A DNA stretch of 64,000 bases from Candidatus Omnitrophota bacterium (GCA_029560465.1 JAKQKX010000016.1:1248-65247), one strand, 5' to 3'. Shown: positions 9,238 through 64,000, counted from the first letter of the stretch. Program-made: numbers and translations. Notes: generated from the sequence alone by a model not told the origin.

Positions 9238-9583
9238 ATTCCTTCAGCTCTTCTGTTATTATTAATCAGTCAAGAATCATGAGTTTCTTAAATGCTAACC
9301 CCTTAGGAATACGGACGCAGGAGATGAATTTTATGAGGGTTTATAAACGGAAAAAATGATATTTGGAGAATAAAGCACCGTCCTCATCAGTCCAGCAGGG
9401 CTTTTTTGAGATATTGAAATGCACCCCCCGCTCCCGCTGGAAAGGAGGAGCTTGTCCTTGTTCCTCGCATGTTTTTTGGGGTGCCCAGGTTGCCCCCGGG
9501 GTCACTTAACCGCCGGGATCTTTTGAAATGCTTGGGAGATATAAATTTTTTATTAACTTCGGGAACAGCAGAGGCTCACAACC

Positions 9584-27677: not shown

Positions 27678-29399
27678 ATGAGGAAGAAAATGCCAGGTTT
27701 TTCCATTTCCGGCGCGTACACCGCGTTCCTTATTATTTTTATTGTTTTGATGACGGCCTGGCTGGGGCGGACCACCTGTTATATCAACGCCTGGCCATCG
27801 GACTCTGCGGCTTCGTATATTCCGACCGCCGCGAAATTGTTTGAGATGCGTTTTTTTTCGCAGATGCATGACCTGCACCTGCATGGGCTGAGCAGGCTTA
27901 ACATGAGGGGAAAAGAGGCGCTCATCGTTGATATCGCTATCCTGCAGCGGATCCTGGGAGACACAGAAAGCCTTTATCCGAACATCCTTTTATTGATCCT
28001 GTCCTGCGGGCTGTCCTCCGGGCTTCTTTTTCTGATTTTTAAGAAATTTTTTAATGCCACGGCCGGATTTGTCGCGTTTGTGCTTTTTGCCTTTAGTTTC
28101 TGGCCGTATATGTATGTCCTTTTGGGCGCGCACCAGCCCCTGGTCCTCTGCAATTTTCTTCTTTCGTTTTTCTTCCTGCAGCGTGCGGGTCCAAGGCGCG
28201 TTTATCTTTTCCTGGGCGGGCTGTTTTTTGGCCTGACTTTTTTTTCTTCCCCCACCGCTATTATGTATATGCCGTATTATGGGTTGCTGTTGTTGGCGGA
28301 TCATCAGGATTTCCGGCTCTCCCGCGTGTTTTCCAAGAAAACCGGCCAGGGGTTTTTGTTCTTTTTCGCCGGCCTGGCCGGGGTCCTACTGGCCTTTACG
28401 CTGCCGCGGCCTTTAGAGAGCCTGAAAATGTTTATTATCTATGTTTTTTTAAGCCGCGGAGGCAACCATTTTCAGTATTACGCGGATTACTTGAGCCGAT
28501 TTTTTGCGGTACCCGCTTTTTTGCGGGGAGGCGGATGGCTCTGGATTTTTAAATATTTTACGCTGACCATGCCTATCCTGTTTGCCGCGTGCGGGGTCAG
28601 CATGGCCTACCTCTTGACCCGCTCGTCTAAGCCCAGGAGGACGTTTATGCTGGTCCTCCTAGGGCTTTCCACGCCTCTGGCCGTGGAGATTATTCAGGTG
28701 GCCCAGTTCGGCCGGAATTATTTTTCCTGGTTTTTCGGGATGATTTTTCTGCTCTGCGCGGCGGTGGGATGTTACATGAACAATCACGCGCCGTTCGTTT
28801 GGAAAAAGCACAAGGTTTTTTCCGTGTCGTTAGCGGTTTTTCTGTTATGCCATGTCGTTTTTAATGCGCGTGTTTTTTTTAAAGATATCCTGCCGTCCCG
28901 CCTGGCTACGACATACGCGTATGAATGGCTACGGGAACGGAATATCGGGCAGGTGCTCGTTTACCAGGATCATCACAGCAACACATTCGCGGCGGATGTG
29001 TTGAATAATCCCAAATCACCCGTAAAAATCGAGTTCCGGGGCATCCGCTCTTTCCTGCAGGCCCGGACCGGGTATATCCTTTTGCCGGGAATCAGTGGAA
29101 CGACGATCTGGCAGGATTGTTCCCGGGACCCGTTTACCGGCGATCCGCCCTTGCAGGGGATTATTGCGGCCGGGCTTCTGCCCGAATGCGCGGCGGCCCG
29201 GTTTCCAACAGTGGCGTCGAGCCGGTACTGGCCGCAGGAAGAAGAAGTCTGCACGTACCGGGACCTTATGCTGGGGCAGGTGTCTGAGCAAACCCGCCGT
29301 TTGAGTGAAATTTATATTCTGGATGTGGCCTGTTTGCGAAAAGTTTACTTCGAGCAAGTTTTAAAAAACAGGGAAGAAGGGGAGCATGATGAAAAATAG
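27678..29399 (+). CDS. Large polytopic membrane protein (10-12 TM) with C-terminal soluble domain; possible GT-C-fold glycosyl/arabinosyl-transferase-like protein
   Basis: 573 aa. Many hydrophobic helices (FVAFVLFAFSFWPYMYVLL, LVLCNFLLSFFFL, ...). C-terminal ~190-aa hydrophilic domain. The family assignment is an inference from topology only. Confidence 0.6.
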   Translation: MRKKMPGFSISGAYTAFLIIFIVLMTAWLGRTTCYINAWPSDSAASYIPTAAKLFEMRFFSQMHDLHLHGLSRLNMRGKEALIVDIAILQRILGDTESLYPNILLLILSCGLSSGLLFLIFKKFFNATAGFVAFVLFAFSFWPYMYVLLGAHQPLVLCNFLLSFFFLQRAGPRRVYLFLGGLFFGLTFFSSPTAIMYMPYYGLLLLADHQDFRLSRVFSKKTGQGFLFFFAGLAGVLLAFTLPRPLESLKMFIIYVFLSRGGNHFQYYADYLSRFFAVPAFLRGGGWLWIFKYFTLTMPILFAACGVSMAYLLTRSSKPRRTFMLVLLGLSTPLAVEIIQVAQFGRNYFSWFFGMIFLLCAAVGCYMNNHAPFVWKKHKVFSVSLAVFLLCHVVFNARVFFKDILPSRLATTYAYEWLRERNIGQVLVYQDHHSNTFAADVLNNPKSPVKIEFRGIRSFLQARTGYILLPGISGTTIWQDCSRDPFTGDPPLQGIIAAGLLPECAAARFPTVASSRYWPQEEEVCTYRDLMLGQVSEQTRRLSEIYILDVACLRKVYFEQVLKNREEGEHDEK

Positions 29400-30045: not shown

Positions 30046-30933
30046 ATGGCGGATGCGGATATTTTAAAAACACTTTTAAGCGTTGTTGAAAAAGGCGGGT
30101 TCCTGGCGGACAGCATGATTCATGACAGCAAGCCGTCGCTGAAGCCGGATCAATCGGTCCTGACCCGGGCGGACAAAGCGGTTTCCGAGCTGGTCCGGGA
30201 CAGCCTTAAAGGATTTTTGGCCACAGGCGAGCATGCCCTGGTTGACGAAGAAGACCCTGGGAGCGCGCAGCTTTTTGGGCCGGTCATGTCCGGCGCGTAT
30301 CAATATGTTTGGTCCCTGGATCCTATCGACGGGACAAGGGCGTATTCCAACCAGATGCCGGTTTACGGGGTGTCCCTGGGGGTCCTGCGCGACGGACAGC
30401 CGTGGATGGGGGCTGTTTTCTTTCCGTCTTTGCGGGAATTTTATTATTGCAACGGCCCGGAGGCCTTTTTTGTGCGGAACGCTTTCACGCCTTCGGCCTC
30501 TGAACAACGGATCGGCCCGCTGGACCAGGACATCACCCCGCAATCGGTCTTTTTGTCCTCCGATCATTTTTTGCGCCGGTACCGATGGGACACGGCGTTT
30601 TGCCAGATCATGATGCCCACGGTGGCCGTGGTGGAGCTGTGCTGGCCGGCCATTGGCCGGGGATGTGGCAGTTATTTCGAAGCCAACTTCTGGGATTTTG
30701 CCGGGGCTTGGCCGGTGTTCCGCGCGGCCGGATTGGACCTGCGTTGCTGCAAAACCGGACAGGTCCTGGACCGGTTACGGAGAGACGCTTTTATCGGGAA
30801 AGGTCCAAAAACCTGGCGCATGAGCGGTGATTATATTTTATCTTCCAGCCGTAATTATCCTCTTATTAAGAAGCACATCAAGCCTTTTCCTGCCTGGCTT
30901 AAGGTGGCGTGGAAAGCCGTTCCCATGATGTAA
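30046..30933 (+). CDS. Inositol-monophosphatase-family phosphatase
   Basis: 295 aa. IMPase signature WSLDPIDGTRAY. RBS agaggggg. Confidence 0.75.
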   Translation: MADADILKTLLSVVEKGGFLADSMIHDSKPSLKPDQSVLTRADKAVSELVRDSLKGFLATGEHALVDEEDPGSAQLFGPVMSGAYQYVWSLDPIDGTRAYSNQMPVYGVSLGVLRDGQPWMGAVFFPSLREFYYCNGPEAFFVRNAFTPSASEQRIGPLDQDITPQSVFLSSDHFLRRYRWDTAFCQIMMPTVAVVELCWPAIGRGCGSYFEANFWDFAGAWPVFRAAGLDLRCCKTGQVLDRLRRDAFIGKGPKTWRMSGDYILSSSRNYPLIKKHIKPFPAWLKVAWKAVPMM

Positions 30934-50263: not shown

Positions 50264-51019
50264 ATGAATCAAAACATCCGTTTCCATTCTCCCTCAACGG
50301 ACCCAGGTTGGGGTGACCAGGGCCGGGCCGAAAAAGCTTCCGCCATTCTGTTAACGCTAGAGTTAATGACCGGATTAAATTTTCAGGATAGTCGTTGGGT
50401 GGACGTGGGTTGTGGGTGTGGCGAGATTGCGGCGCATCTTTCCACACAGGTTGGGCACATGATTGCGATTGACCCGGCGCCTTGGCAACGGTGGCCGACG
50501 CTTAGGGACACCCACCCGAATTTAGAATTTGTCCAAGGAGATTACACCAGCAATTACCCTGAACCGGCTTCAGTCGATGTCGTTATCTGTAACCAAGTCT
50601 ACGAACATGTGCCGGATCCTGAAGCGTTGCTTGGATTTATATACCGTATTTTGAAACCGGGCGGATATGCTTATTTCGCAGGCCCCAATCTCCTGTTTCC
50701 TATTGAACCTCATGTTTTTTGGCCTTTTGTACATTGGTTGCCAAGGCAGTTTGCAAGAGCGCTGATGCGTTTTTTTCATGCCAAGTATCTCGTTACTGCA
50801 AATTTGGTAACGATCTGGACTTTACGTCGTTGGTTTCATGACTTTGAAGTACGCAACGCCGTGCCAACAATCCTGCGCAACCCAGATAAATATGGTCGTA
50901 AGGGCTTGCTTTGGCATGCCGCATCCATGGTCCCGTGGTGCATTTTTGACATGCTGACAGTTTTTTCCCCCGGATTTATCTTTGTCCTTCGTAAACCAGA
51001 TATATATCAAACCCTGTAA
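50264..51019 (+). CDS. Class I SAM-dependent methyltransferase
   Basis: 251 aa. Motif I VDVGCGCGEIAAHL. Post-I acidic residue. Motif ILKPGGYAYFAGPN. Preceded by a ~340-nt AT-rich non-coding stretch. Confidence 0.75.
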   Translation: MNQNIRFHSPSTDPGWGDQGRAEKASAILLTLELMTGLNFQDSRWVDVGCGCGEIAAHLSTQVGHMIAIDPAPWQRWPTLRDTHPNLEFVQGDYTSNYPEPASVDVVICNQVYEHVPDPEALLGFIYRILKPGGYAYFAGPNLLFPIEPHVFWPFVHWLPRQFARALMRFFHAKYLVTANLVTIWTLRRWFHDFEVRNAVPTILRNPDKYGRKGLLWHAASMVPWCIFDMLTVFSPGFIFVLRKPDIYQTL

Positions 51020-52649: not shown

Positions 52650-53942
52650 ATGGGCCTTAACGCGGTTTTAACAAAGTCCTTGCGAAGTTACCTTTCCGGC
52701 CGGGACAGCCAATATGTGTTTCAGAAATTTGATCCGGCCGTGGATGCGTTTTCGTTTCCGCCGCGGGGCGGGTTGTATCTTCACATCCCGTTTTGCAAGA
52801 ACCTGTGCCCGTATTGCCCTTATTTTAAGATCCCCTATGAAGCGGAAAAGGCGCGGCAATATAAAGAGGCGGTGCGCAAAGAAATCCGTATGTATGGCCG
52901 GATGCTTCCGGGCGCCCGGTTTACTTCTTTGTATGTCGGCGGGGGCACGCCGACATTAATGATTGATGAATTGTTTGAGATTATAGGCGAGTTAAGAAAT
53001 AATTTTAATTTTGACGGGCCGATCGGACTGGAGACGTCGCCCGGAGATATCACCGAAACCAATTTAGCCAAGTTGCGGGCTTTGGGCGTGAACCTGTTGA
53101 GTGTCGGCGTGCAGAGTTTTCAGGACAGGTTTCTGCGCAGTATTGGAAGAAATTATGGCGGGGAGGAGATTGCCCGTGCCTTGGGGGCGCTAAAGAAGTT
53201 CAAATTTGACACGGTTAATTTTGACCTGATTTTTGTTCTGCCCCGGCAAACGATGCGCGCCCTGGAAGATGATATCCGGAAAGCGCTTGGCTTTCGCCCG
53301 GACCAGATAACATATTATCCCTTGTTCACTTTTCCCTATACCTCCATCGGGGAGTATAGAAAATTGAAGGGGTTAAAACTCCCTAATGTGTTTAAACGGA
53401 GGGCCATGTATTACCGTATTTATGACGTCCTTTCGCGGGAAGGATACGCGCCGACCTCGGTCTGGTCGTTTAACCGGAAAGGCACGGTGCCTTATTCTTC
53501 CGTGACGCGGGATTTTTTTCTCGGGCTGGGGGCGGGGGCCGGAACGTATACCAGGGAAGGGTTTTATTTTAATATTTTTTCTGTTGAACATTATAACGCG
53601 TTCTTAAACCAGGAGAAGCGTTTGCCGTTAGCCCTGAAAATGAACGTTTCCGAACGGATGGCGAAATTGTTTTGGCTTTACTGGCGTTTTTATGAAACAA
53701 AGGTCCCCTTTGAGGATTATCGCCGGCTTTTCGGGCGGGATTTAGAAGAAGATTTTGCCGCGGTTTTCAAAGTTGTTAAGTTGTTGAGCCTGGCTGACGA
53801 CCAGAAGGGGCCGGTGTTAAGGCTGAATAAGGCGGGCTCGCATTGGATTCATTTGTTGCAGAATTATTTCGCTTTGAATTATGTCAGCAAAATCTGGAAG
53901 ATATGCAAGGACAATCCACTGCCCCAACAGATCGCGATTTAA
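52650..53942 (+). CDS. HemN/HemW-like radical SAM enzyme (oxygen-independent coproporphyrinogen-III oxidase family)
   Basis: 430 aa. LYLHIPFCKNLCPYCPYF (CxxxCxxC). YVGGGTPTLM motif typical of the HemN family. Confidence 0.8.
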   Translation: MGLNAVLTKSLRSYLSGRDSQYVFQKFDPAVDAFSFPPRGGLYLHIPFCKNLCPYCPYFKIPYEAEKARQYKEAVRKEIRMYGRMLPGARFTSLYVGGGTPTLMIDELFEIIGELRNNFNFDGPIGLETSPGDITETNLAKLRALGVNLLSVGVQSFQDRFLRSIGRNYGGEEIARALGALKKFKFDTVNFDLIFVLPRQTMRALEDDIRKALGFRPDQITYYPLFTFPYTSIGEYRKLKGLKLPNVFKRRAMYYRIYDVLSREGYAPTSVWSFNRKGTVPYSSVTRDFFLGLGAGAGTYTREGFYFNIFSVEHYNAFLNQEKRLPLALKMNVSERMAKLFWLYWRFYETKVPFEDYRRLFGRDLEEDFAAVFKVVKLLSLADDQKGPVLRLNKAGSHWIHLLQNYFALNYVSKIWKICKDNPLPQQIAI

Positions 53943-53943
53943 T

Positions 53944-54843
53944 ATGGTCATAAAGAAAATTTTTTATTATATAAAATGGCTCGTGAGGTGTCAGGTCCTG
54001 GGGGAAAGAATCCCATTGAACAGCTCGATTATTTTGACGGATAAATGCAATCTCCATTGCAAACACTGCGTTGTGGCCCACCTGGGGTATAACGACCAGA
54101 ATTTTTCTGCGGTGCAGTCGGATATTAAAAAGCTGTATCTTGCCGGTTCGCGTGTGCTTGTCATAACCGGAGGGGAACCGTTTTTGTGGCGGGATAAAAA
54201 TTTTTTTATGGAAGATGTTGTCCAGTACGCTAAAAAGCTGGGATTCTTTCGCGTTGTAATTTGCACAAACGGGACGTTCCCGCTCGCGTCAGAGGCCGAT
54301 TATCTTTGGGTCAGCCTGGACGGATTCCCGAAAGAACATAATTTGATGCGGGGGGACATTTATTCCCGGGTGGTCCATAATATTGTCACTTCGCCGCACA
54401 AAAGAATTTATATTAATTTTACTATCAGCCGGGTCAATGCCGATGATTTTGAAAAGGCCGCGGAGAGGATTTTTAAACTAAAGAATGTCCGTGGCATTTT
54501 GTTCCATTTGTTTACCCCGTATTTAGGGTCGGAGAAAAGTTTAACGCTCCCTGCGGCAGAGAGGGGCGAGGTTGTCCGAAAAATTTATGACATCAAGAAA
54601 AGGCATCCCTGGAAGGTTTTTAATACTTTTGACGGCATTAAGGCCTTAAGAGATGACCGCTGGCCGCGGCGGGTCTGGGGGAGCCTGACCATCAATCAGG
54701 GGGAGATGGTCCCGTGTTGCTGCCGGAAAGGGATTTATGACGGGGCCGTATGTAAAAATTGCGGTTGCACGCCGGCGGTGGAAACCTGGGTTTTGCAAAC
54801 AGCCAAACCGCTGGCGTTGTTGGAAAACCTGAGATTCATTTAG
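53944..54843 (+). CDS. Radical SAM enzyme with C-terminal Cys-rich (SPASM/twitch-like) region
   Basis: LTDKCNLHCKHCVV (CxxxCxxC). GGEPFL glycine-rich motif. C-terminal CCCRKGIYDGAVCKNCGC. Start overlaps the stop of the upstream gene (TAATATG). Confidence 0.7.
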   Translation: MVIKKIFYYIKWLVRCQVLGERIPLNSSIILTDKCNLHCKHCVVAHLGYNDQNFSAVQSDIKKLYLAGSRVLVITGGEPFLWRDKNFFMEDVVQYAKKLGFFRVVICTNGTFPLASEADYLWVSLDGFPKEHNLMRGDIYSRVVHNIVTSPHKRIYINFTISRVNADDFEKAAERIFKLKNVRGILFHLFTPYLGSEKSLTLPAAERGEVVRKIYDIKKRHPWKVFNTFDGIKALRDDRWPRRVWGSLTINQGEMVPCCCRKGIYDGAVCKNCGCTPAVETWVLQTAKPLALLENLRFI

Positions 54844-54994
54844 CTCTTTATGCGCCAATATTTTAGATTAATTGATTGCGGGGGACTTTTTGGGGGGTGT
54901 AAAATGAGGAGGTTTTTGATAACACGCGAGTTCCCGTAATTTCTTATCGTTGTTTTATTATAAAAAGCAGGCTAACTTTGGATGGAGGTGGGTC

Positions 54995-55546
54995 ATGAAG
55001 GGTCCAAGAAGACTTGGTTTATGTCTCGTCGTGTTCTTGCTGGGATGGGCTGCCGCGGGGGCGGCCAATGAAATTAAAGTTGATGTCAGGGGGGATGTTT
55101 ATGACCAGAACGGCGAATATTTTCTGGATTTCAGCCAGATTCCATCAAGAATTAAGACATTGAGTGAAGCGGTTCCCCAAAAGGCCGAATATGAGTCTGA
55201 CGTGGAATACGCCGCGAAGGTACAACCCTATGAAAACAAGTTGTCAGAACTTTACGATTCGGAATACAGCATTACGTTAACGCCGCAACTGCTCGCCTCC
55301 AGCCCAGAGGTTGAATTTTACCGCTTTGTTTTAAACTTCCCCTTTCCGATTTACAGGAAAGACAACTTTATCAGCACGCAATCCTTAGAATACATTTATG
55401 AAGTCCCTCAAGAGGAGATAAAAACAATTGGAGGGAAAAAGGACGACATGAAAATTAAATTGTATTTTAAGATTTTACAGGACAAGACGGTTGCGATACA
55501 AAAGGTGATTTTGATATTTAATAACAAAAAGATGCGTCAATGGTAA
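54995..55546 (+). CDS. Hypothetical secreted protein
   Basis: GGAGGTG RBS. Signal peptide MKGPRRLGLCLVVFLLGWAAAGAA. Confidence 0.55.
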   Translation: MKGPRRLGLCLVVFLLGWAAAGAANEIKVDVRGDVYDQNGEYFLDFSQIPSRIKTLSEAVPQKAEYESDVEYAAKVQPYENKLSELYDSEYSITLTPQLLASSPEVEFYRFVLNFPFPIYRKDNFISTQSLEYIYEVPQEEIKTIGGKKDDMKIKLYFKILQDKTVAIQKVILIFNNKKMRQW

Positions 55547-55704: not shown

Positions 55705-56769
55705 ATGAAGCGCCCTTTTTATCAATCCATACGGTCCATTTTTACGGAGTACTATGTCTCTTTGGAAGACGGCGTGGCGGAAGCCCGGCGCCATCCCCTG
55801 CCCCCGGAGGACCTTGAGCGTGTTCAGGCCAGAATTCAGGAAAAATGGAACGCCTTTTGGCGCGTTCCTCTGTTGGCGGATACGCCAGATCCGGAGATGT
55901 ATCTGAATAACGTACAAAAGACGCTGCGCGCCGAAGGATATTGTTTGGATATCACCCCTCAATACGGGCTTGACGCCGGAGGATTGAATTTTGAGATAAT
56001 CAACCATATAAGCTTGAGGCCGGTCCTGGAACGGACGCGAAGGAAGGCCAGGGCCGGGGGCCAGGAGATCGAATATGAAGAATTCCTCCTTGGAGAAAAT
56101 TTGATAAAGGTTCCCCCTTTTATCGAGCCGATTTTGGAAAGCGCGTCTGCGTCCGAAGTGATGATTTTTACCGATGATTTGAAAGAAAGCTTAGATAATG
56201 ATTATGCCCTGTTCGAAGATTATTGGGAAGAATCCCAGCGGCATTATCAGAAGGGCCTTGTTTCCGCGGACAATCTGTGTTGTGTGACCCTGCGGTTGCA
56301 TAAACGCCAGTGGGGGACGGGACGCCCGGGGCCTGAGGCCCAGAACCTTTTGATGGAACACTTCCGGCGGCACGGTGAACAACATGTGGCGGACTTCAAT
56401 TTGATCAATACGGGAACACTGAAATTTTCGCTGGAAGACCCGGCCTTGACGGAAGATTTAAACAAGGACAGCCTCCTGGAAGCCAGGGTCTTGCTGCAGC
56501 AATTGTTGAGAGGGTCTTTGCCGTATTATACATTGGGGCAGATCATTTTGTTTGAACGGGAATGGTTGACAGGATCCCGCTCGGAATACGCCTGGGCGGG
56601 GCACGTCCTGTTTGACGGCCTGCCCCGGGGGGTGGCCAACGGCCTTGACAATAGGGAGTTCTGGGTTACTGGAATTGAGGATGTGGCCGAAGAGGTGATT
56701 TGTCGCCTCGCGCTCGGGTTCGCGCGGAGAAACAGAAATTTTACGGACCTTTTGCCCCCAGGCCATTAA
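55705..56769 (+). CDS. Hypothetical cytoplasmic protein
   Basis: 354-aa ORF with no hydrophobic segments and no recognisable motif. Confidence 0.5.
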   Translation: MKRPFYQSIRSIFTEYYVSLEDGVAEARRHPLPPEDLERVQARIQEKWNAFWRVPLLADTPDPEMYLNNVQKTLRAEGYCLDITPQYGLDAGGLNFEIINHISLRPVLERTRRKARAGGQEIEYEEFLLGENLIKVPPFIEPILESASASEVMIFTDDLKESLDNDYALFEDYWEESQRHYQKGLVSADNLCCVTLRLHKRQWGTGRPGPEAQNLLMEHFRRHGEQHVADFNLINTGTLKFSLEDPALTEDLNKDSLLEARVLLQQLLRGSLPYYTLGQIILFEREWLTGSRSEYAWAGHVLFDGLPRGVANGLDNREFWVTGIEDVAEEVICRLALGFARRNRNFTDLLPPGH

Positions 56770-56931: not shown

Positions 56932-58797
56932 ATGAAAAAAATATTTTTTGTAACTTTGACACTGTGGATGACCATAGTGGTTTCGGCTTCCGCGGCACCG
57001 GTGGTTTTTTTTGATGACATCCCGGCGGGAAGAAACACGTTTGACACAAACATTTCGGCTGTTGGTGGCACCCAAACCAATGACGCCCTGTCAGGACTCG
57101 CAAGCGACGCCAATTCTTGGAGCAGGACGGGGTACACCATAACCTCGACAAACGGGGCCAGCAGAACCGTCGACACGACGTATTTGGCCACGCCCCAGCC
57201 CGGGAGTATCCCCGGCGGGGATGCTATCCAAATGACCGCGGATGGGACCACCACGTCCGGGTTGACGTTTACCTTCTCTTCTCCTATCAATGGATTTGGC
57301 ATTGATTTTGGCGATTGGGGTACATGCTGCCACCCTTCGACTATTTATATCTGCTTTGACGGTGGAGCGCCGATTGCCATCGGCACGGCGAACGCGACGA
57401 CGGATAATCCGGGCTTTGCCACCTATGGTGTGTTTGAAAATTTTATCGGCAGCATTGACGATTCCGGGACGTTTTCGGTCGTCACGCTTTACGGTACCGG
57501 GACCGGCGACGTCCTTTACGCTGGCGGCGTTATCCGTTACGCCATTGTGCCGATCGGCTCTATTTCCTCCCCGTCCTCTTCGCCCAGCTATCCCACAACG
57601 GTCAGTACCAGGCCGGTGAGCCCTTTGGCCAATTATCTGGATGAGTATGACGGCAGCGGGACGTTGCAGACGGTGGCCACGACCCTGGACGGCTATTCTG
57701 AATCCGAAGTGGAAGAGGCCCTGAAACACATTTTTCCCGTTGACAGCGTTTCAAGTTCCCGCGCCTCCATGGCCAATATTCAGAACGTCAATTCCTTGGT
57801 CCACGACAAAATCGGAACTGTCTTGGGCGGCATGGACACGGGCTCAAATTTTAACCAGGTTTTCAACCCTCATGCTGATCCGTATGGCTTGTCATCAACG
57901 GGGGGCGCTTTTGAGTCGTTCATGCAAGCGTTTTCGAACATCAATTATAAGCAATTTGAGAAAGGCGAAAGAGGGCTGTGGATCCAGGGGATGTTCGGTG
58001 GGAGTCAGGGCGAGCGCACTGATTACAGTAACGGGTATAACACGGAAAAGTACGGCGTCCTGGCCGGGTATGAATTCGCCGTTGATTCCAATCACCTGCT
58101 GGGGGTTTACGCCAACAGCCTTTATTCGGAAATCGATCTGACCCAGAACGCGGGGACGACGGAAATCAAAGATTATATATTCGGCGTGTACGGTCAGAAA
58201 ATAATGGATGCTTATAAACTATCAGCGACGATAGGTGGAGGAATCGCCCGGTATGATGCTATCAGGCATGTGGTCGTTGGGTCTGTGTCCGGAAGCCCCG
58301 AGGCCGAATACGACGGGAATCATTTTTCGTCCACCTTTTCCATCAGCCGGTTGTTCGAGCATAAAAACGTGCAGCTGGAACCTTTTTTGCAGACAGGATA
58401 TCTTTATAATAAAACAGACGGGTATACCGAGTCCAACGGGGGGTCGTTCAACATGCAGGTTGACGGGAATTCTTTCGCCCAGATGAATATCAAAGCCGGG
58501 ATGGCGTTTAAAAAAGATTTCCAAGCCAACGCAAAGACCGTTTCCATCAAGGTCCGGCCGTTTATTAATCACATTTTTGAAGTCGAAGACAGCGATGATA
58601 TCAATGTCAGGTTTATCGGAGCGTCAACCCAAACGACAATAAAAGGCCGGGATTCTTCCGTCACGGAAAGAGGAGCCAATTTTGAATTGAGTTGCCCTAT
58701 TAGCCCGATGTTTGGTTTAAAGGGATTTATAGATTACTCTTCTGATAAATATGAAGAAAGGTATGTGGGATTTTTAGAACTCAACGCGAAATTCTGA
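56932..58797 (+). CDS. Autotransporter (type Va) outer-membrane protein: signal peptide, ~320-aa passenger, C-terminal beta-barrel translocator
   Basis: AAGGAGGGAAGA RBS. Signal peptide MKKIFFVTLTLWMTIVVSASA. C-terminal ~290 aa has the autotransporter beta-domain pattern (GLWIQGMFGGSQGERTDYSNGYNTEKYGVLAGYEFAV...) and ends in ...ELNAKF. Confidence 0.8.
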   Translation: MKKIFFVTLTLWMTIVVSASAAPVVFFDDIPAGRNTFDTNISAVGGTQTNDALSGLASDANSWSRTGYTITSTNGASRTVDTTYLATPQPGSIPGGDAIQMTADGTTTSGLTFTFSSPINGFGIDFGDWGTCCHPSTIYICFDGGAPIAIGTANATTDNPGFATYGVFENFIGSIDDSGTFSVVTLYGTGTGDVLYAGGVIRYAIVPIGSISSPSSSPSYPTTVSTRPVSPLANYLDEYDGSGTLQTVATTLDGYSESEVEEALKHIFPVDSVSSSRASMANIQNVNSLVHDKIGTVLGGMDTGSNFNQVFNPHADPYGLSSTGGAFESFMQAFSNINYKQFEKGERGLWIQGMFGGSQGERTDYSNGYNTEKYGVLAGYEFAVDSNHLLGVYANSLYSEIDLTQNAGTTEIKDYIFGVYGQKIMDAYKLSATIGGGIARYDAIRHVVVGSVSGSPEAEYDGNHFSSTFSISRLFEHKNVQLEPFLQTGYLYNKTDGYTESNGGSFNMQVDGNSFAQMNIKAGMAFKKDFQANAKTVSIKVRPFINHIFEVEDSDDINVRFIGASTQTTIKGRDSSVTERGANFELSCPISPMFGLKGFIDYSSDKYEERYVGFLELNAKF

Positions 58798-58814: not shown

Positions 58815-59357
58815 ATGATCAAACGAACGTTGGGTTTCTTCCTGTTTTTCTGGGTCATGGTCATCGGCGCCGGCCAGGCGACGATGTTCTGGCGTCCGGC
58901 CGAGGCGGCCATGGAGAGGGTGTATGAGATCCTTGACCCGGAAACTCCGGACATATCGTTGCCCGGCGGCCTTTCTGAAGAGATTCGCGCGCGCCTTCAA
59001 AAGAGCGGCCAAGCCATGCCGTTGGGCGAATATCCCTCAGAAAACCTATCAACGCTCGCGTGGGAAGCGCTTAAAGCTCGGGAGGTCACAAAAGTAGAAG
59101 CGGCGGCTTTTTGGTGCCTTGAGGTTTATGGCGAAGAAGCCGGAAAGCTGCAGGCGGAGTTTGACGCGGACAATAACCAATATTATACCGTCCTGATGAC
59201 CCCGGGTCTGACGACTATGCGGCCGTTAGTTTATGCCGGGGAAGCGCTTTGGGCTTTAGGCGAGGCTTATCGTCAGGCCGGACGGGAGGAGGAAGCCGTC
59301 ATCGTTTACAGCGAATTGATCCGCAATTATTATCTCAGCGCCACGGAGAGGCATTAA
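58815..59357 (+). CDS. Hypothetical secreted protein
   Basis: 180 aa. Signal peptide MIKRTLGFFLFFWVMVIGAGQA. Confidence 0.55.
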   Translation: MIKRTLGFFLFFWVMVIGAGQATMFWRPAEAAMERVYEILDPETPDISLPGGLSEEIRARLQKSGQAMPLGEYPSENLSTLAWEALKAREVTKVEAAAFWCLEVYGEEAGKLQAEFDADNNQYYTVLMTPGLTTMRPLVYAGEALWALGEAYRQAGREEEAVIVYSELIRNYYLSATERH

Positions 59358-59502
59358 GAGCAGGAAAGGTTTTGAAATAACATCCTTATCTTTGTGAGTC
59401 CGCGGGATGGGCCGAATGACAATTCAGCCGGAAACCCGCTCACGAAGTAAGGATTTTTTTATTTATGTTAGATATCGGGCAAATTAACGTCAGTAATAGT
59501 TC

Positions 59503-59548
59503 GCAGAAGAAGGCGTGGTCATGTTGTTTTGCGGTGTGACCTCGCCTT
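59503..59548 (+). terminator. Rho-independent terminator (long nested hairpin + T-run)
   Basis: gaagaaggcg-t-ggtca-[15 nt]-tgacc-t-cgccttctt followed by ttttttc. Confidence 0.65.
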
Positions 59549-59718
59549 CTTTTTTCTTGCCATTCTCAAAAGTTGGAACACAGATAAAAATATCCTGTAA
59601 TATCCGCACGCAGTATAATTATTTATGTCCTTGTTATCATCAGAAACAAATAATAAAATATAGAAAACTTTGCGGAAACACAGGCTGCTTTCATAAGGGG
59701 ATTCCGTGCCGGTGAAAG

Positions 59719-60858
59719 GTGCCCCAGGACAGGGAAAGGATGTGTGACATGGGCCTCTATGTTTGGAAATACGGATATCGAAAAATATTAGAACCTTGGG
59801 CTGAAAAATTCGCCTGGCTTGACCCGGATATCGTGAGTTACGCGGCGTTAATTATTTCGGGTTTTACCGCCGGCTGTTATGTCCTGGCCGCCGAATACCC
59901 GGTTCTCTTATTATTAGCCATCCTCCTGATTTTTACGCGGATGACCATGAACACAATCGACGGCGTGATGGCGATACAGCAGGGGAAAACAACTTTAGCC
60001 GGAGAAATCGTGAACGCCTTGCCGGACCGGTACGCGGATGTTGTGCTACTTTTGGGGTTGGTTTATTGCCCTTTTTGCCGGCAGGATTTGGCGATTTTCG
60101 CCATGGGCACGGTTTTTTTAGTGAGTTATACCGGGATGCTTGGGAAAGCCATTGGAGTGAGCTGGCAGCACCACGGGCCTTTGGGGAAGGTCGAACGGCT
60201 GATTCTTCTTATGGTGTTTACTTTAATTCAGTTATTTTCCCCCGCCCTTTCCTTCTTGGGCTTTAGCTTGAGCCCTCTTTCCTGGTGCATGGTGTTCTAT
60301 ATTATTCTTGGGCAGATAACGGTGTTTAACAGGCTGCGGGGACAGCTGCGGGAAGTGTGTTTAAAGGAATGGCCGGCCAGCCGGGAGCGGCAGGCTGTCG
60401 CCGGGAGGGCTTTGGTTGTATATGATTCGCAAACCGGAAACACAAAGATCATCGCGGAAAGAATAGCGTCAACATTATCGGTAAAGTGCTGTTCGGTGAA
60501 AGAACCTTTTGATGACAGGCTGTATGACTTGGCTATTTTTTGTACTCCTAATATCCGGGGGAATTGCACCGCGCGCATGGTGGAGTTCCTTAAGAAAACG
60601 CCCCCTCGATTTAATTATTACGGTATTGTCGTGAGTTATGGGGCGCCCCTTTGGGGCTGGCCGACAGCCGTTAAAACCGGGTGGTCTGTGGCAAGCCGGC
60701 TGGGCGGCCGGCCGTTAAAATGTTTTTTGGTTAAGGGGTATCACGCGAAATTTAAAACTTATAAAGGGCGGCCGAATCGGGCGGATCAGGACAAGGCCGC
60801 CGTGTTCGCCGTAAGTGTCGCGCGCAAAATGATCAAAAGGAGCGCCTATGAACAATGA
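59719..60858 (+). CDS. Fusion protein: CDP-alcohol phosphatidyltransferase-like membrane domain + C-terminal flavodoxin-like domain
   Basis: N-terminal ~230 aa with 5-6 TM helices and a CDP-OH-P-transferase-like motif NTIDGVMAIQQGKTTLAGEIVNALPDRYAD (DG..A......G.......D...D). The C-terminal domain begins ALVVYDSQTGNTKIIAERIA, the flavodoxin FMN phosphate-binding loop signature. Start overlaps cdsA. Confidence 0.7.
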   Translation: MPQDRERMCDMGLYVWKYGYRKILEPWAEKFAWLDPDIVSYAALIISGFTAGCYVLAAEYPVLLLLAILLIFTRMTMNTIDGVMAIQQGKTTLAGEIVNALPDRYADVVLLLGLVYCPFCRQDLAIFAMGTVFLVSYTGMLGKAIGVSWQHHGPLGKVERLILLMVFTLIQLFSPALSFLGFSLSPLSWCMVFYIILGQITVFNRLRGQLREVCLKEWPASRERQAVAGRALVVYDSQTGNTKIIAERIASTLSVKCCSVKEPFDDRLYDLAIFCTPNIRGNCTARMVEFLKKTPPRFNYYGIVVSYGAPLWGWPTAVKTGWSVASRLGGRPLKCFLVKGYHAKFKTYKGRPNRADQDKAAVFAVSVARKMIKRSAYEQ

Positions 60859-61756
60859 CGCCAGGACAGTTGTGTGGATTGCCGGTTCCCTCCTGGGGAT
60901 TTTTGGCCTGATCGTGATCATCTGGTCCGGCATCGCCAAAGCCCGCGGGCAGAATGTTAAAACCATCTGGACGCGTTATCTCGCGTGGTTTTTGATCGCG
61001 CCGCCGCTGATTATCCCGTTGATTTGGGGGAGGGTCCCTTTTATTATTTTGATGGGGTTCCTTTCGCTTTTGTGTTTCCGGGAATACGCTCATGCCGTCG
61101 GCTTGTGGCGGGACAAGGCCCTCATGTGGATTTGCTATATAGGGATTGCCTGCATCTACGGGCCCATTTTTGGTTTTGAATACGGGATATTTCAGGCCAT
61201 GCCCATTTATGTGATCGCCTTTATCTTGACCATCCCGATGCACCGGGATGAATACGAGCACATGATTCAAAAAATCTGCCTGGCGGTCCTAGGGGTTGTT
61301 TATTTCGGATGGTTTTTTTCCCACCTGGCGTATTTGCGCAACCTTTCCTACGGGATGTTGGCCACTTTTTTGCTCATCCTGCTCGTGGAAAGCAATGATG
61401 CCTGCGCGTACCTCTGGGGCATGGTGTTTGGCAAACACAAATTGATCCCGCGGTTAAGCCCGAATAAAACTGTGGAAGGCATGTTCGGCGCAACCATTTC
61501 CGTGGTCGGGTTGGCGTTCGCTTTTAGGTTTCTTATCCCGTTCGTTTCCGCGGCGCACCTCGTTGTCCTGGCGTTTGCCGTGTCCGTGTTTGGCATGTGC
61601 GGGGATCTGACGATTTCGTTCATAAAGCGGGATTTAAAAATCAAAGACATGGGGAATTTGATCCCCGGGCACGGCGGATTGCTGGACCGGTTTGACAGTA
61701 TTATTTTTACCGCCCCGATCTTTTTTCATTTTTTGAGGTACCTTTATGGAGAATGA
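60848..61756 (+). CDS. cdsA: Phosphatidate cytidylyltransferase (CDP-diglyceride synthase)
   Basis: 302 aa, polytopic. CdsA signature SFIKRDLKIKDMGNLIPGHGGLLDRFDSIIF. Confidence 0.9.
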   Translation: MNNDARTVVWIAGSLLGIFGLIVIIWSGIAKARGQNVKTIWTRYLAWFLIAPPLIIPLIWGRVPFIILMGFLSLLCFREYAHAVGLWRDKALMWICYIGIACIYGPIFGFEYGIFQAMPIYVIAFILTIPMHRDEYEHMIQKICLAVLGVVYFGWFFSHLAYLRNLSYGMLATFLLILLVESNDACAYLWGMVFGKHKLIPRLSPNKTVEGMFGATISVVGLAFAFRFLIPFVSAAHLVVLAFAVSVFGMCGDLTISFIKRDLKIKDMGNLIPGHGGLLDRFDSIIFTAPIFFHFLRYLYGE

Positions 61757-62447
61757 TTGGAAATTCGACAGGCCTCCATCGGCTCTGGAGCTGGTCCAGA
61801 ATAACGTATTTTCAAATTTTCTAAGGACAGCCCTCCATGTTATCGTCCGGTTGTCTTTTCTTTGTTATCATCGTTTTCAAACCGTGCATCCAGAGCGGCT
61901 GGAAGGAATTCAATCTAAAATCATCGCCGCAAATCATTCCAGCCATTTAGACGTCTTGGCGTTGTTCAGCGCGTTTCCTTTAAAAGACATTAACAGGATC
62001 CGGACTTTTGCCGCCAAGGATTATTTTTTTAAAAACCCTTTTTTGCGCTGCGTCGGGTTCTTTTTCGCCAATGTTATCCCGATAGACAGGCAGGGGTGGA
62101 GCGCGGAATCCTTGTCTTATGCCGGGCGAGCGCTTGCGGAAGGCGGGATTTTTATCATTTTCCCGGAAGGGACGCGGTCTGTTGACGGGGAAATTCACTC
62201 CTTTCGCCCGGGAATAGGCATGCTGGCTTTGCATTATGGGGTGGCCATGGTACCGGTTTATATTGACGGGACGTTTTCATGTCAAAAAAAGGGGGACTGT
62301 TTCCCAAAACCGCATAAAATCCGCATTATCGTGGGGACCCCGATCGATTTTTCGCATTTGGAAAATAACCGGCAGAGCTGGGAAACAATAACGAGCGCAT
62401 TAGAATTACGGATTAAAAACCTTAAGGAGGAAATAAAGCATGTTTAA
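61746..62447 (+). CDS. plsC: 1-acyl-sn-glycerol-3-phosphate acyltransferase
   Basis: 233 aa. HX4D motif NHSSHLD. FPEGTRS motif. Confidence 0.88.
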   Translation: MENDWKFDRPPSALELVQNNVFSNFLRTALHVIVRLSFLCYHRFQTVHPERLEGIQSKIIAANHSSHLDVLALFSAFPLKDINRIRTFAAKDYFFKNPFLRCVGFFFANVIPIDRQGWSAESLSYAGRALAEGGIFIIFPEGTRSVDGEIHSFRPGIGMLALHYGVAMVPVYIDGTFSCQKKGDCFPKPHKIRIIVGTPIDFSHLENNRQSWETITSALELRIKNLKEEIKHV

Positions 62448-63243
62448 AAGTTTGAAGATTATATTCACGAAATTCCTTGTCCGCACGATTGGCCGGACCA
62501 GTGACGGCATACAGATGAGTTTTAAGTACGGTTTTATATCGGGCAAGATGCTTGATTATATCTATGCCAATAAGCCGGCTGGAAAGTTTCTGATCGGGAA
62601 ATGGATTGACCGGATGTATCTCTCGCATCCCGGATGGAAGGTTATCCGGGAGAGAAAAGACAACCTGGTCCGAGCCTTGACCCGGGCCATAGATTTAACA
62701 TTGAAGGGGCAGAAATCCGTTCATATTTTAGACGTCGCCTCGGGCCCGGCGCAATATATTATTGATGTCCTTCAGCGGTTCCCCGCCGATACCGTGGCGG
62801 CCGTGTGCCGGGATTACGATCCGAAATGGGTTGAGGAGGGCACCCGCAAGGCGGCCGCGGCCGGATTGACAAATATTTCTTTCGAGCAGGGGGACGCTTT
62901 TGAAGCGGACAGTTTCAAAGAAATGACGGGCACGCAGGATGTCGTCGTCTCTTCGGGTTTTTATGACTGGATTGTTGACGACGCTTTGGTTAAAAAATCC
63001 ATGAAGATTATTTATGATGTCTTGCGTCCGGGGGGCTATTTTGTGTTTACAAATCAGAGCGGGCATGTTGACCTGGACATGGTTGAAAAAATCTTTATAG
63101 ATTTTAATAAGGACCCGCTTAGGATGAAGACGCGGCCAGAGAAACTCATCAATGGTTGGGCCCAAGACATTGGTTTCGAGATTGTAGACACGGCCGCTGA
63201 CCAGAAAGAATATTATTCCGTCACATTGGCTCTTAAAAAATGA
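62440..63243 (+). CDS. Class I SAM-dependent methyltransferase (in phospholipid operon)
   Basis: 267 aa. VHILDVASGPAQY (motif I). VLRPGGYFVFTNQ. Confidence 0.7.
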   Translation: MFKSLKIIFTKFLVRTIGRTSDGIQMSFKYGFISGKMLDYIYANKPAGKFLIGKWIDRMYLSHPGWKVIRERKDNLVRALTRAIDLTLKGQKSVHILDVASGPAQYIIDVLQRFPADTVAAVCRDYDPKWVEEGTRKAAAAGLTNISFEQGDAFEADSFKEMTGTQDVVVSSGFYDWIVDDALVKKSMKIIYDVLRPGGYFVFTNQSGHVDLDMVEKIFIDFNKDPLRMKTRPEKLINGWAQDIGFEIVDTAADQKEYYSVTLALKK

Positions 63244-63379
63244 GCGTGTCCTCCTCATCCTGCCGCAGAGCCTGGAGTGTATCCTGGGAGCAGGCCGGGG
63301 AGGGGGGGCCGTTGAATTTTCAGGCTGTTCAATGATTCATAAGAGATTCAACGTCTGGCGCACACGCGTGAGGGGGAAA

Positions 63380-64000
63380 ATGAGAAAAGAACCATTATAT
63401 AAATCGACCCTGGGAAGCCTTTTGATTGTCCTATTCTTGGGTTGGGGGGGCTTTCATGTTTGGGCTAATCAGACTGGCCCGTACAAGGTCTATTATGAAA
63501 GCGGGCAGGTGCAGGAAGAAGGAAGGTACAAAGACGGCAAGAAAGACGGCCCGTTTAAGGCGTATTACGAAAGCGGACAGTTGCAGGAAGAAGGGGTTTA
63601 CAAGGACGATAATCTGGACGGCCCGTTTAAGGCGTATTATGAAAGCGGGAAACTGCAAATGGAAGGGGCTTACAAGAATAATAAGCTGAACGGTTTGTAT
63701 AAGCTGTATTACGAAAGCGGACAACTGCAAATGGAGCGAATGTTCCGGGACGATAAACAAGACGGCGAGGGAAAGGCGTATTACGAAAGCGGACAATTGC
63801 AGGAAGAGGGGATCTTTAAGGACGATAAACGGGACGGCCCGTATAAGCTCTATTATGGAAGCGGGGAGCTGCAAATGGAAGGGATGTTTAAAGGTGGCAA
63901 GAGGGACGGTGGGTATAAGGCGTATTACGAAAATGGACAACTGCAGGAAAAAGGGGTCTTTGACGGCGATAAATTGAACGGCCCGTATAAGTTTTATTCA
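63380..64000 (+). CDS. MORN-variant (YwqK-like) repeat protein, 5' partial (runs off window end)
   Basis: GAGGGGG RBS, then ATG 63380. Signal/TM segment LGSLLIVLFLGWGGF. At least eight tandem 23-aa repeats with consensus YKxYYESGQLQxEGxxKDDKxDGP. This frame is not in the ORF track because no stop lies within the window. Confidence 0.7.
   Translation, partial: MRKEPLYKSTLGSLLIVLFLGWGGFHVWANQTGPYKVYYESGQVQEEGRYKDGKKDGPFKAYYESGQLQEEGVYKDDNLDGPFKAYYESGKLQMEGAYKNNKLNGLYKLYYESGQLQMERMFRDDKQDGEGKAYYESGQLQEEGIFKDDKRDGPYKLYYGSGELQMEGMFKGGKRDGGYKAYYENGQLQEKGVFDGDKLNGPYKFYS
63470..64000 (+). repeat. 69-nt period DNA tandem repeat (coding MORN-variant repeats)
   Basis: Units such as ggcccgtttaaggcgtattacgaaagcggacagttgcaggaagaagg recur with about 75-90% identity every 69 nt. 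Confidence 0.7.

Follow-up and report, generated by a model that had tools for sequence, protein, structure and literature searches.

The first gene of a four-gene lipid operon in DNA of a Candidatus Omnitrophota bacterium encodes a membrane domain of the CDP-alcohol-phosphotransferase superfamily fused to a flavodoxin-fold domain, and this fusion is real and conserved. In the interpretation that we prefer, which we hold at roughly even confidence, the four genes, translationally coupled and self-contained as a cassette, would be an environmental variant of E. coli ynbABCD devoted to a specialised membrane lipid, a methylated phospholipid whose synthesis includes an FMN-dependent tailoring step. 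The window (the entire 64,000-nucleotide stretch that was analysed) contains the four open reading frames proposed in the initial annotation, all on the plus strand, with the fusion gene at the head of the operon and successive overlaps between the genes of 11, 11 and 8 nt:

59358..59748, plus strand: intergenic leader of 391 nt, 5' of the operon
59719-60858, plus strand: mechanical open reading frame of the fusion gene, opening at GTG 59719
59749..60858, plus strand: YnbA-type CDP-alcohol-phosphotransferase-fold and flavodoxin fusion gene, 369 aa (open reading frame, homologue alignment)
60848..61756, plus strand: YnbB-type phosphatidate cytidylyltransferase gene, a CdsA paralogue (PF01148, BLASTP, family profile)
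61746..62447, plus strand: PlsC-family (LPLAT) acyltransferase gene (PF01553, motifs in the translation)
62440..63243, plus strand: YnbC-type class I SAM methyltransferase gene, PF12147 Methyltransf_20 (Pfam, YnbC match)

The fusion gene had been taken to begin at GTG 59719, but the N-terminus MxLY of the family and a Shine-Dalgarno-like GGAAAGG 9 nt upstream make ATG 59749 the likelier start. Within the leader, positions 59631-59659 give a sigma-70-like match, which is a match to consensus only and weak evidence.

The reading frame of the fusion is uninterrupted, with neither a stop codon nor a frameshift between its two halves, either of which would have spoken against a fusion, and both peptides on which the two domains had originally been recognized lie in it. 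AlphaFold modelled the two-domain protein with confidence (pLDDT 93.1, pTM 0.85, from a 118-sequence alignment). Since over 120 full-length homologues (about 365-375 aa, with identities of 43-90%) are built in the same way and the family is found at 58 genome loci, the fusion is not a product of chance or of assembly. The combination of domains, described as unfamiliar in the initial annotation, is thus not rare, but belongs to a large, automatically annotated and unstudied family. From the six-helix topology and the positive-inside loops of the membrane domain, we infer that the flavodoxin domain lies on the cytoplasmic side.

Three elements were delineated in the N-terminal half:

59749..60384, plus strand: membrane domain, N-terminal amphipathic helix and six transmembrane (TM) helices, YnbA-type (Foldseek, hhalign, NCBIfam)
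59950..60039, plus strand: modified CDP-AP signature N68-x2-D71-G72-x2-A75-I76-x8-G85-x3-N89-x3-D93-R94-x2-D97 (alignment to M. tuberculosis PgsA1)
60163..60198, plus strand: invariant cytoplasmic TM4-TM5 loop W139-Q-H-x-G-P-x-G-K147-V-E-R150, putative acceptor pocket (alignments)

The AF2 model contains the six-TM class I CDP-AP fold with its N-terminal amphipathic helix. Foldseek matched this domain to the PIP synthases 6h53/6h59 and further to 5d91, 4o6n and AF2299, with TM scores of 0.74-0.77 on the target for 6h53/6h59, 5d91 and 4o6n. In the HMM search that had been suggested for both domains, the membrane half stayed below the Pfam CDP-OH_P_transf (PF01066) threshold (14.4 bits, cut-off 22), which E. 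coli YnbA clears with 39.2 bits, while the flavodoxin half passed (see below). The archaetidylinositol-phosphate (AIP) synthase model matched with an E-value of 2.6e-23, but neither NCBIfam equivalog cut-off was reached (AIPS 82.9 against 180 bits, PIPS 40.7 against 170), and these near-misses are the same as those of E. coli YnbA. Consistently, an hhalign comparison of the family profile with E. coli YnbA gave a probability of 98% (E 2e-13, 156 columns) and no match to PgsA, so that the first gene is of YnbA type rather than a canonical head-group transferase as originally assumed.

The departure from the canonical signature D-x2-D-G-x2-A-R-x8-G-x3-D-x3-D is larger than the single change from AR to AI that had been pointed out. 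That change is real, but the window reads N-x2-D-G-x2-A-I-x8-G-x3-N-x3-D: the first and third Asp are Asn (N68, N89) in 118 of 118 aligned fusions, and the motif Arg at position 76 is substituted in all of them, by a hydrophobic residue in 117 (I76 in the window). Among 37 wider TM-only relatives, these two Asp residues are lost together. In PgsA1, D68 and D89 are Mg-1 ligands, the motif Arg binds the CDP alpha-phosphate, R94, S132, R155 and R195 bind the phosphate of inositol-phosphate, and D93 is the putative base (PMC6506517). In the fusions, D71, G72, A75, G85, D93, R94, D97, R150 and R195 are invariant (118/118), and S126, the equivalent of PgsA1 S132, is kept in 117. R150 lines up with PgsA1 R155, and the equivalence of R195 to PgsA1 R195 is one of alignment position only; both arginines are also invariant among the 37 relatives, E. 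coli YnbA included. As the substitutions are invariant across the family, N68, I76 and N89 appear to mark an active site changed under selection and not a decayed one. Transferase activity is nevertheless only putative, because two metal ligands are missing and the Pfam and NCBIfam cut-offs are not reached.

The partner genes point to the same E. coli system. The second gene, initially taken for a housekeeping cdsA, matches CTP_transf_1 (PF01148) with an E-value of 7e-62 and is closer to YnbB than to CdsA, both by BLASTP (129 against 96 bits) and by family profile (E 7.5e-65 over 283 columns, the N-terminal half included, against 1.1e-35). E. coli YnbB makes CDP-DAG in vitro and does not sustain bulk phospholipid synthesis (PMC7018664), which fits a dedicated hand-off of CDP-DAG. 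The third gene matches Acyltransferase PF01553 (79.6 bits, E 2e-22) and encodes the motifs H-x4-D (NHSSHLD) and FPEGTRS, but it misses the TIGR00530 cut-off (67.9 against 103). The fourth gene matches PF12147 Methyltransf_20 (192.5 bits, E 1e-56) and the C-terminal half of E. coli YnbC (30% identity, E 2e-43). Its product has an ordinary class I fold (AF2 pLDDT 92.8) with generic small-molecule methyltransferases as fold neighbours, and its remaining Pfam matches are generic class I models with no PEMT family among them. The earlier idea of a phospholipid N-methyltransferase thus found no specific support, although the YnbC-type enzyme may carry out N-methylation chemistry.

E. coli ynbABCD and the window operon both consist of neighbouring genes read in the same direction. 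The membrane domain and YnbA are homologues that have in common the Asn-for-Asp changes at the first and third motif positions and the GPxGKxxR loop, the second gene is of YnbB type over its full length, and the methyltransferase corresponds to the PF12147 domain of YnbC. E. coli YnbA differs from the window fusion in having neither a flavodoxin domain nor an equivalent of R94 and in retaining the motif Arg. YnbC is a methyltransferase fused to a lysophospholipase-like hydrolase, whereas the window enzyme has no hydrolase, and YnbD (PAP2 plus dual-specificity phosphatase) has no counterpart in the window cassette, which instead contains a PlsC-type acyltransferase. Searching the literature for a functional characterisation of YnbA or for a Ynb-type product retrieved neither, for E. 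coli ynbABCD as well.

The cassette recurs at 58 genome loci in at least ten candidate phyla, and clustering at 50% identity (E<=1e-30) left 62 representatives, among them full-length fusions as well as the triple fusions P0241 and P0242. Across loci the flavodoxin module co-varies with the methyltransferase, in counts that are not phylogenetically independent. It is fused to YnbA, to the methyltransferase (P0205) or to both (YnbA-flavodoxin-methyltransferase in P0118 and P0241), or encoded beside the methyltransferase, as in locus L047, where YnbA lacks a flavodoxin and a stand-alone one adjoins the methyltransferase. Nine YnbA-only loci have neither methyltransferase nor flavodoxin; some of these are in Gastranaerophilales, an order that also carries the full form. 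The YnbA-only versions keep the same motif and still adjoin a YnbB-like gene. A BLAST search with YnbD found a YnbD-like phosphatase in 0 of 58 loci, and the hydrolase domain of YnbC gave weak matches in three loci, none of them in the window. An IMPase-family gene lies 30 kb from the cassette.

We considered whether the first gene encodes a plain PIP or AIP synthase making ordinary inositol phospholipids, with the flavodoxin as an incidental or regulatory appendage, and regard this as improbable. PIP and AIP synthases (M. tuberculosis PgsA1; NF045883, NF040950) provide the nearest curated models, AIPS before PIPS, as well as the closest solved folds; names given by JGI agree, and the nearest relatives outside the clade are canonical AIPS-like proteins. 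Counterparts of the putative base D93 and of the inositol-phosphate residues R94, R155 and R195 of PgsA1 are invariant, and that of S132 is conserved as well. However, the scores fall far short of both equivalog cut-offs, and the Mg-1 ligands and the motif Arg are replaced in the whole family. The partners, moreover, are a YnbB-type rather than a CdsA-type enzyme and a PF12147 methyltransferase with which the flavodoxin co-varies, and a Pfam scan of the window open reading frames and the recurrent Gastranaerophilales neighbours revealed no inositol-phosphate synthase (MIPS) and no PIP or other lipid phosphatase in or beside the cassette.

The C-terminal half comprises the following:

60409..60855, plus strand: flavodoxin-fold domain, Flavodoxin_3 type (Pfam, profiles, Foldseek, alignment)
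60424-60444, plus strand: P-loop D-S-Q-T-G-N-T of the flavodoxin domain

Residues 232-293 match Flavodoxin_3 (28.2 bits, cut-off 27.5, E 2e-6), and profile comparison with solved flavodoxins gave an E-value of 4e-5. Foldseek aligned the domain to short-chain flavodoxins (1fvx, TM 0.77, rmsd 2.4 A; 5wid, 0.73; 5ljl, 0.72), which together with the profiles identifies a five-stranded alpha/beta flavodoxin fold; weak matches to the BilS and Flavodoxin_5 (HemG-type) models were also obtained. The fold, P-loop and 90s-loop Trp are common to the window domain and to short-chain flavodoxins and small flavoproteins of the Flavodoxin_3, BilS and HemG-like types. In an alignment with C. beijerinckii flavodoxin, the P-loop S-x-T-G-N-T and the Trp of the 90s-loop P-x-W-G (P-L-W-G in the window) are retained, while classical flavodoxins have a 50s loop longer by two residues. 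N231 and T232 of the P-loop are invariant in the family. Unlike short-chain flavodoxins, the window domain is covalently joined to a polytopic membrane enzyme and, besides the shortened 50s loop, has an insertion of roughly 13 aa (G-Y-H-x-K-F-K-T-Y-K-G-R-P), the pattern of which (G-x-H-x3-K-T-Y-K) is common to a subfamily of stand-alone flavodoxin-like proteins. Members of this subfamily also occur alone in unrelated contexts, which marks the module as generic and counts against the preferred reading.

These features bear on the possibility, to which we likewise attach a low probability, that the domain has no redox role and is a flavin-free structural or regulatory unit, or a phosphate-binding module for a phosphorylated head group. 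The narrow margin over the Flavodoxin_3 threshold, the short 50s loop and the lack of a redox partner in the cassette are in line with this, as is the presence in E. coli of the phosphatase YnbD, which the window cassette lacks. On the other hand, the P-loop is nearly identical to that of C. beijerinckii flavodoxin, the stacking Trp is kept, a Cys-x5-Arg phosphatase loop is absent, and the stand-alone members of the same subfamily are small flavodoxin-like proteins.

In the ynb-related route that we prefer, the PlsC-like enzyme would supply or remodel the diacyl lipid, the YnbB-like enzyme would provide a private pool of CDP-diacylglycerol, and from this pool the YnbA-like domain would pass the phosphatidyl group on to a phosphorylated acceptor of polyol type. 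Such a transfer would combine a conserved acceptor side (no aligned fusion departs from the putative base D93 or from R94, R150 and R195, the counterparts of residues that hold the phosphate in PIP synthases) with a remodelled donor and metal site, in which the Mg-1 ligands D68 and D89 have become Asn and R76 hydrophobic. The PF12147 enzyme would then methylate the product of the YnbA-like domain, so that the end product is probably a methylated membrane lipid. The putative FMN-binding flavodoxin, at the cytoplasmic face by the active site, could act as electron donor or acceptor in a modification that is coupled to the methylation, either reducing a methylated intermediate or oxidizing or reducing the head group. 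Against this interpretation, the cassette has no enzyme with an obvious need for electrons, and E. coli YnbC functions without a fused flavodoxin; the missing metal ligands and the lack of inositol-phosphate synthase and lipid phosphatase genes in or beside the cassette count against it as well. A SAM methyltransferase and a flavoprotein are likewise paired on a membrane lipid in the synthesis of tuberculostearic acid, where acyl chains of phospholipids are methyl-branched in two steps by the methyltransferase BfaB, of the cyclopropane-fatty-acid-synthase family, and the flavin reductase BfaA, an FAD oxidoreductase. This is a mechanistic analogy only, as the BfaB and BfaA families are absent from the cassette and no homology was found.

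A head group linked through diacylglycerol pyrophosphate (X-PP-DAG), resembling the MPIase anchor and formed by a YnbA-like domain using a phosphate instead of a hydroxyl acceptor, seems quite unlikely. Synthesis of the MPIase precursor GlcNAc-PP-DAG, unlike that of bulk phospholipids, can reportedly be sustained by E. coli YnbB, but the same papers name CdsA/YnbB for this step and assign YnbA no role (PMC6362211, PMC7018664, PMC11413397). Losing two acidic metal ligands together might favour an acceptor with more negative charge; against this, the strictly kept putative base D93 would be needless for a phosphate nucleophile, the cassette has no glycosyltransferase or sugar-phosphate genes, and MPIase production is not known from these phyla. 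It is equally hard to believe that the membrane domain is catalytically dead, an anchor or lipid-binding scaffold that brings the flavodoxin and the methyltransferase to a lipid synthesized by other enzymes: the signature has indeed changed at three of its eight residues (two of four metal-binding Asp and the Arg binding the CDP alpha-phosphate) and the Pfam threshold is missed, but the substitutions are conserved beside nine invariant residues, and a pure anchor would not be constrained to keep the motif next to a YnbB-like gene, as the YnbA-only versions do.

Returning to the preferred ynb-related reading, a more tentative and rather doubtful extension is that these cassettes constitute, together with ynbABCD, an unrecognised branch of glycerophospholipid synthesis, in which the Asn/Asn site adds an unusual head group that is tailored by the methyltransferase and the membrane-tethered flavodoxin. 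If so, head-group chemistry would include a redox-dependent step, and many uncultivated anaerobes (Melainabacteria, Omnitrophota, Dehalococcoidia, Planctomycetota and others) would share a new lipid class.

The make-up of the cassette varies between loci. Of 60 loci, 48 have a cdsA-like gene and likewise 48 a plsC-like gene, in varying gene order, and flanking genes differ even where the cassettes are 90% identical. Elsewhere, the plsC-like domain forms part of a fusion with acyl-activating/carrier domains or with the methyltransferase.

Four co-directional genes make up the cassette studied here, which follows an intergenic leader of 391 nt:

59719-60858, + strand, first ORF, encoding a fusion of a YnbA-like membrane domain to a flavodoxin-fold domain (FLD); uninterrupted across both halves
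60848-61756, + strand, YnbB-like gene, overlapping the first ORF by 11 nt
61746-62447, + strand, PlsC-like acyltransferase gene, overlapping the second gene by 11 nt
62440-63243, + strand, PF12147 methyltransferase (MT) gene, overlapping the PlsC-like gene by 8 nt

Successive overlaps of 11, 11 and 8 nt between genes on one strand are typical of operons with translational coupling. Homologues of the fusion protein start with M-x-L-Y, and a matching ATG lies at 59749 with GGAAAGG 9 nt 5' of it, so that the true fusion protein is probably 369 aa long rather than 379 aa.

The initial annotation had read the first gene as a CDP-alcohol phosphatidyltransferase fused to a flavodoxin-like domain, heading a cdsA-plsC-methyltransferase operon. 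In Pfam, the C-terminal part of the fusion matched Flavodoxin_3 barely over the threshold, and the N-terminal half stayed under the threshold for CDP-OH_P_transf. The latter half also matched two NCBIfam models, those of archaetidylinositol-phosphate synthase (AIPS; E 2.6e-23) and of PIP synthase, with scores well short of either cut-off. The remaining three proteins were assigned by Pfam to CTP_transf_1 (E 7e-62), Acyltransferase (E 2e-22, with the H-x4-D and FPEGTR motifs in its translation) and Methyltransf_20 (E 1e-56). The closest folds to the predicted methyltransferase structure were the uncharacterised Bordetella protein 3ocj and generic O-, N- and C-methyltransferases. Neither the domain matches nor these fold neighbours gave specific support to the earlier suggestion of a phospholipid N-methyltransferase, which we dropped.

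The fusion itself stood up, and the earlier interpretation held in part. The same architecture recurs in over 120 full-length homologues, which are about 365-375 aa long with 43-90% identity; over 100 collinear homologues rule out an assembly or frameshift artefact. Scanning one genome per species for the pattern yielded 58 loci with the family, in MAGs of Gastranaerophilales/Melainabacteria, Omnitrophota, Planctomycetota, Dehalococcoidia, Anaerolineales, Margulisiibacteriota, WOR-3, Lentisphaerales, Bacillota, Auribacterota, FCPU426 and Xenobia. A database copy identical to the window methyltransferase is labelled Candidatus Omnitrophota, and the fusion proteins are already in databases under automatic names. 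An exhaustive HMMER search of 1.84 billion representatives gave 62 matches at E<=1e-30 and 840 at E<=1e-10, comprising full-length fusions, triple fusions of 626-645 aa, and many membrane-domain-only and stand-alone flavodoxin-like proteins. AlphaFold (118 sequences) modelled the fusion with a pLDDT of 93.1 and a pTM of 0.85; an amphipathic helix and six TM helices are joined in the model through a short linker helix to an alpha/beta domain. In Foldseek, the N-domain resembled the PIP synthases 6h53/6h59 and 5d91 as well as AF2299, while the C-domain resembled short-chain flavodoxins (1fvx, TM 0.77, rmsd 2.4 A; also 5wid and 5ljl), and the family profile matched solved flavodoxins in sequence at an E of about 4e-5. 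Homologues, models and profile match thus speak against both a missing flavodoxin and a hidden stop or frameshift.

The closest known system is ynbABCD of E. coli, a lead that we tested directly against the E. coli proteins. The window membrane domain was 31% identical to YnbA over 100 aa, and the family profile matched YnbA with 98% probability (E 2e-13) over 156 columns starting at residue 1 and gave no match to PgsA; YnbA also produced the same sub-threshold NCBIfam matches as the window protein. The second gene product scored 129 bits against YnbB versus 96 against CdsA, and a profile of 46 cassette homologues matched YnbB over its whole length at E 7.5e-65, compared with 1.1e-35 for CdsA. 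The methyltransferase shared 30% identity (E 2e-43) with the PF12147 domain that forms the C-terminal half of YnbC. The E. coli system also includes a lysophospholipase-like domain on YnbC and the protein YnbD (PAP2 plus a dual-specificity phosphatase); the window has neither, and a PlsC-type acyltransferase takes their place. A YnbD-like protein was absent from all 58 loci. On the function of YnbA, YnbC and YnbD, the searchable literature returned only work on YnbB and MPIase and a negative result for YnbD; YnbA appears there solely as a predicted protein, and no paper was found on the flavodoxin fusion, PF12147/Methyltransf_20 or YnbA function. In E. coli, azoR (L060 10256-10861), encoding an FMN-dependent NADH:quinone oxidoreductase with a flavodoxin-like fold, lies directly downstream of ynbD in convergent orientation, an adjacency that may be coincidental.

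Residues of the membrane domain were mapped by alignment to M. tuberculosis PgsA1, whose numbering coincides with that of the 369-aa protein through the motif. In PgsA1, D68, D71 and D89 bind Mg-1, and D89 and D93 bind Mg-2. D93 is also the presumed base there, R76 touches the alpha-phosphate of CDP, and inositol-phosphate is held at its phosphate by R94, S132, R155 and R195 (PMC6506517). All 118 fusions had N68, D71, G72, A75, G85, N89, D93, R94, D97, R150 and R195, and position 76 was hydrophobic (I/M/L/V) in 117 of them. Among 37 membrane-domain-only relatives, 13 carried D68, every one together with D89 (canonical, AIPS-like), and 22, including YnbA, paired N68 with a non-acidic residue at 89 in every case. 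None of the 37 departed from R150 or R195. As judged from these alignments, the YnbA clade is set apart by two Mg-1 ligands that were lost together under strong constraint, with the presumed base and the acceptor-phosphate pocket kept. A catalytically dead scaffold would fit the lost ligands, but the constraint on that loss and the kept base and pocket argue against it and for an enzyme with an altered donor/metal site. Four distant membrane-domain relatives of 338-439 aa (P0316, P0325, P0351 and P0360) pass the Pfam CDP-OH_P_transf threshold and have C-terminal extensions of 110-210 aa that match no Pfam family; the YnbA-type membrane domain may therefore have other fusion partners.

Across loci, the flavodoxin module tracks the methyltransferase. 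The methyltransferase was present at nearly all FLD-bearing loci, and nine YnbA-only loci (membrane domain without FLD) with enough contig on both sides had neither methyltransferase nor flavodoxin; these are raw locus counts without phylogenetic correction. Three YnbA-only loci did have a methyltransferase: in L047 a separate flavodoxin directly follows it, and the other two reach a contig edge. Both states, with and without FLD and MT, occur inside Gastranaerophilales.

Compared with C. beijerinckii flavodoxin, the flavodoxin domain retains the FMN phosphate loop (D-S-x-T-G-N-T) as well as the Trp of the 90s loop; its 50s loop is shorter, and it carries an insertion of 13 residues, G-x-H-x3-K-T-Y-K. 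Stand-alone proteins in unrelated contexts carry the same insertion, which rules out a subfamily exclusive to the cassette; the module is therefore a small flavoprotein of generic type that was recruited here. The high pTM of the model suggests fixed packing of the domain against the membrane domain, and from the topology it would be cytoplasmic. Its P-loop resembles that of low-molecular-weight phosphatases; a stand-in for the missing phosphatase was nevertheless rejected as lead idea, since the Cys-x5-Arg loop is lacking and the FMN loop is canonical.

ORF clustering found cdsA-like genes in 48 of 60 loci and plsC-like genes likewise in 48 of 60, in several gene orders, and flanks were unrelated even between the window cassette and cassettes 90% identical to it. 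The parts also occur in other fusions: YnbA-FLD-MT (P0118, with a YnbB-like gene directly upstream, and P0241), FLD-MT (P0205), PlsC-MT (P0234), and PlsC joined either with acyl-activating and carrier domains or with a domain resembling an MFS lysolipid transporter. In Omnitrophota/WOR-3 relatives (L047 2790-9796; L044; L045; L052), a YnbA-only gene lies downstream of a large PlsC fusion (AMP-binding, PP-binding and acyltransferase; about 860-926 aa), preceded in L044 and L047 also by an alpha/beta hydrolase and a membrane-anchored hexapeptide acyltransferase; this points to a form of the cassette extended in acyl remodelling. YnbA-only/YnbB/PlsC cassettes in L048, L050, L051 and L052 lack methyltransferase and flavodoxin and carry instead a small four-helix EamA/SMR-like membrane protein (113-134 aa; in L050 at 9290-9631) that may be a lipid flippase subunit. 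Two Bacillota MAGs (L038, L042) are exceptions, having the YnbA-FLD fusion with a more divergent flavodoxin half (24-27% identity) and no YnbB-like, PlsC-like or MT gene within 7 kb. We discounted gltX, nrdDG, pfk and GT2 as members, these being housekeeping neighbours in Gastranaerophilales that reflect lineage synteny.

The homologies, conserved cassette, fusions and motif pattern are established. In the pathway that we propose, the PlsC-like enzyme would supply or remodel a diacyl lipid, the YnbB-like enzyme would produce CDP-DAG as a private pool, the YnbA-like domain would move the phosphatidyl group onto a phosphorylated polyol-type acceptor, and the PF12147 enzyme would methylate the resulting lipid, with the flavodoxin giving or taking electrons in a methylation-linked step. 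A private pool fits the finding that YnbB makes CDP-DAG in vitro without sustaining bulk phospholipid synthesis (PMC7018664). We give this overall picture of a dedicated pathway with methylation and a flavodoxin electron step an even chance, and any specific chemistry a far smaller one. An ordinary PIP or AIP synthase would agree with the Foldseek neighbours and the kept acceptor pocket, and less well with the substitutions at 68 and 89. An enzyme making a pyrophosphate lipid like the MPIase anchor would suit the YnbB kinship; the strictly retained D93 sits less easily with it. A non-redox flavodoxin-fold domain would accord with the altered 50s loop, less so with the retained FMN loop.

Bacterial membrane-lipid pathways are regarded as largely mapped, and ynbABCD is an exception; Ynb-type genes form a tightly conserved cassette in many uncultivated anaerobic lineages, gut Melainabacteria included. 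The compact four-gene unit, the specific residues, the predicted flavin and the predicted methyl label offer handles for finding the lipid. Were the flavodoxin catalytic, it would be, to our knowledge, the first redox cofactor tied to a head-group pathway of the CDP-alcohol-transferase type.

Elsewhere the window holds unrelated genes for nitrogen assimilation, an Lnt-like protein, carAB, pyrG, a two-component system, two radical SAM proteins, an autotransporter and a downstream MORN_2 repeat protein. Directly upstream of the operon lie the autotransporter beta-domain protein (56932-58797, 621 aa, E 8e-40) and a small protein with a signal peptide and a single weak TPR-like match (58815-59357); the 90%-identical cassette in L002 is flanked by different genes. 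The adjacent, overlapping radical SAM genes (52650-54843, 430 and 320 aa) are about 5-7 kb upstream; flavodoxin-type reductants serve radical SAM enzymes. The two ORFs after them (54950-55546 and 55705-56769) had no Pfam match, and a class I methyltransferase gene (50264-51019) is located about 9 kb 5' of the operon. An inositol-monophosphatase-family gene (30046-30933), 30 kb from the operon beside a PMT_2-type glycosyltransferase gene (27678-29399), is not evidence for inositol metabolism because the family is broad (SuhB/CysQ/FBPase). In the giant ORF 382-9237 (2951 aa), the only recognisable pieces are a Peptidase_M48 segment near 640-739 and an ABC1 atypical-kinase domain near 2259-2518. 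Finally, the MORN_2 ORF at 63332-64000, which runs past the window end, has an N-terminal hydrophobic segment and at least eight 24-residue repeats (G-P-[FY]-K-x-Y-Y-E-S-G-Q-L-Q-E-E-G-x-[FY]-K-D-x-K-x-D; Pfam MORN_2 variant, E 1e-34), whose 72-nt DNA periodicity accounts for the repeats at the window end.
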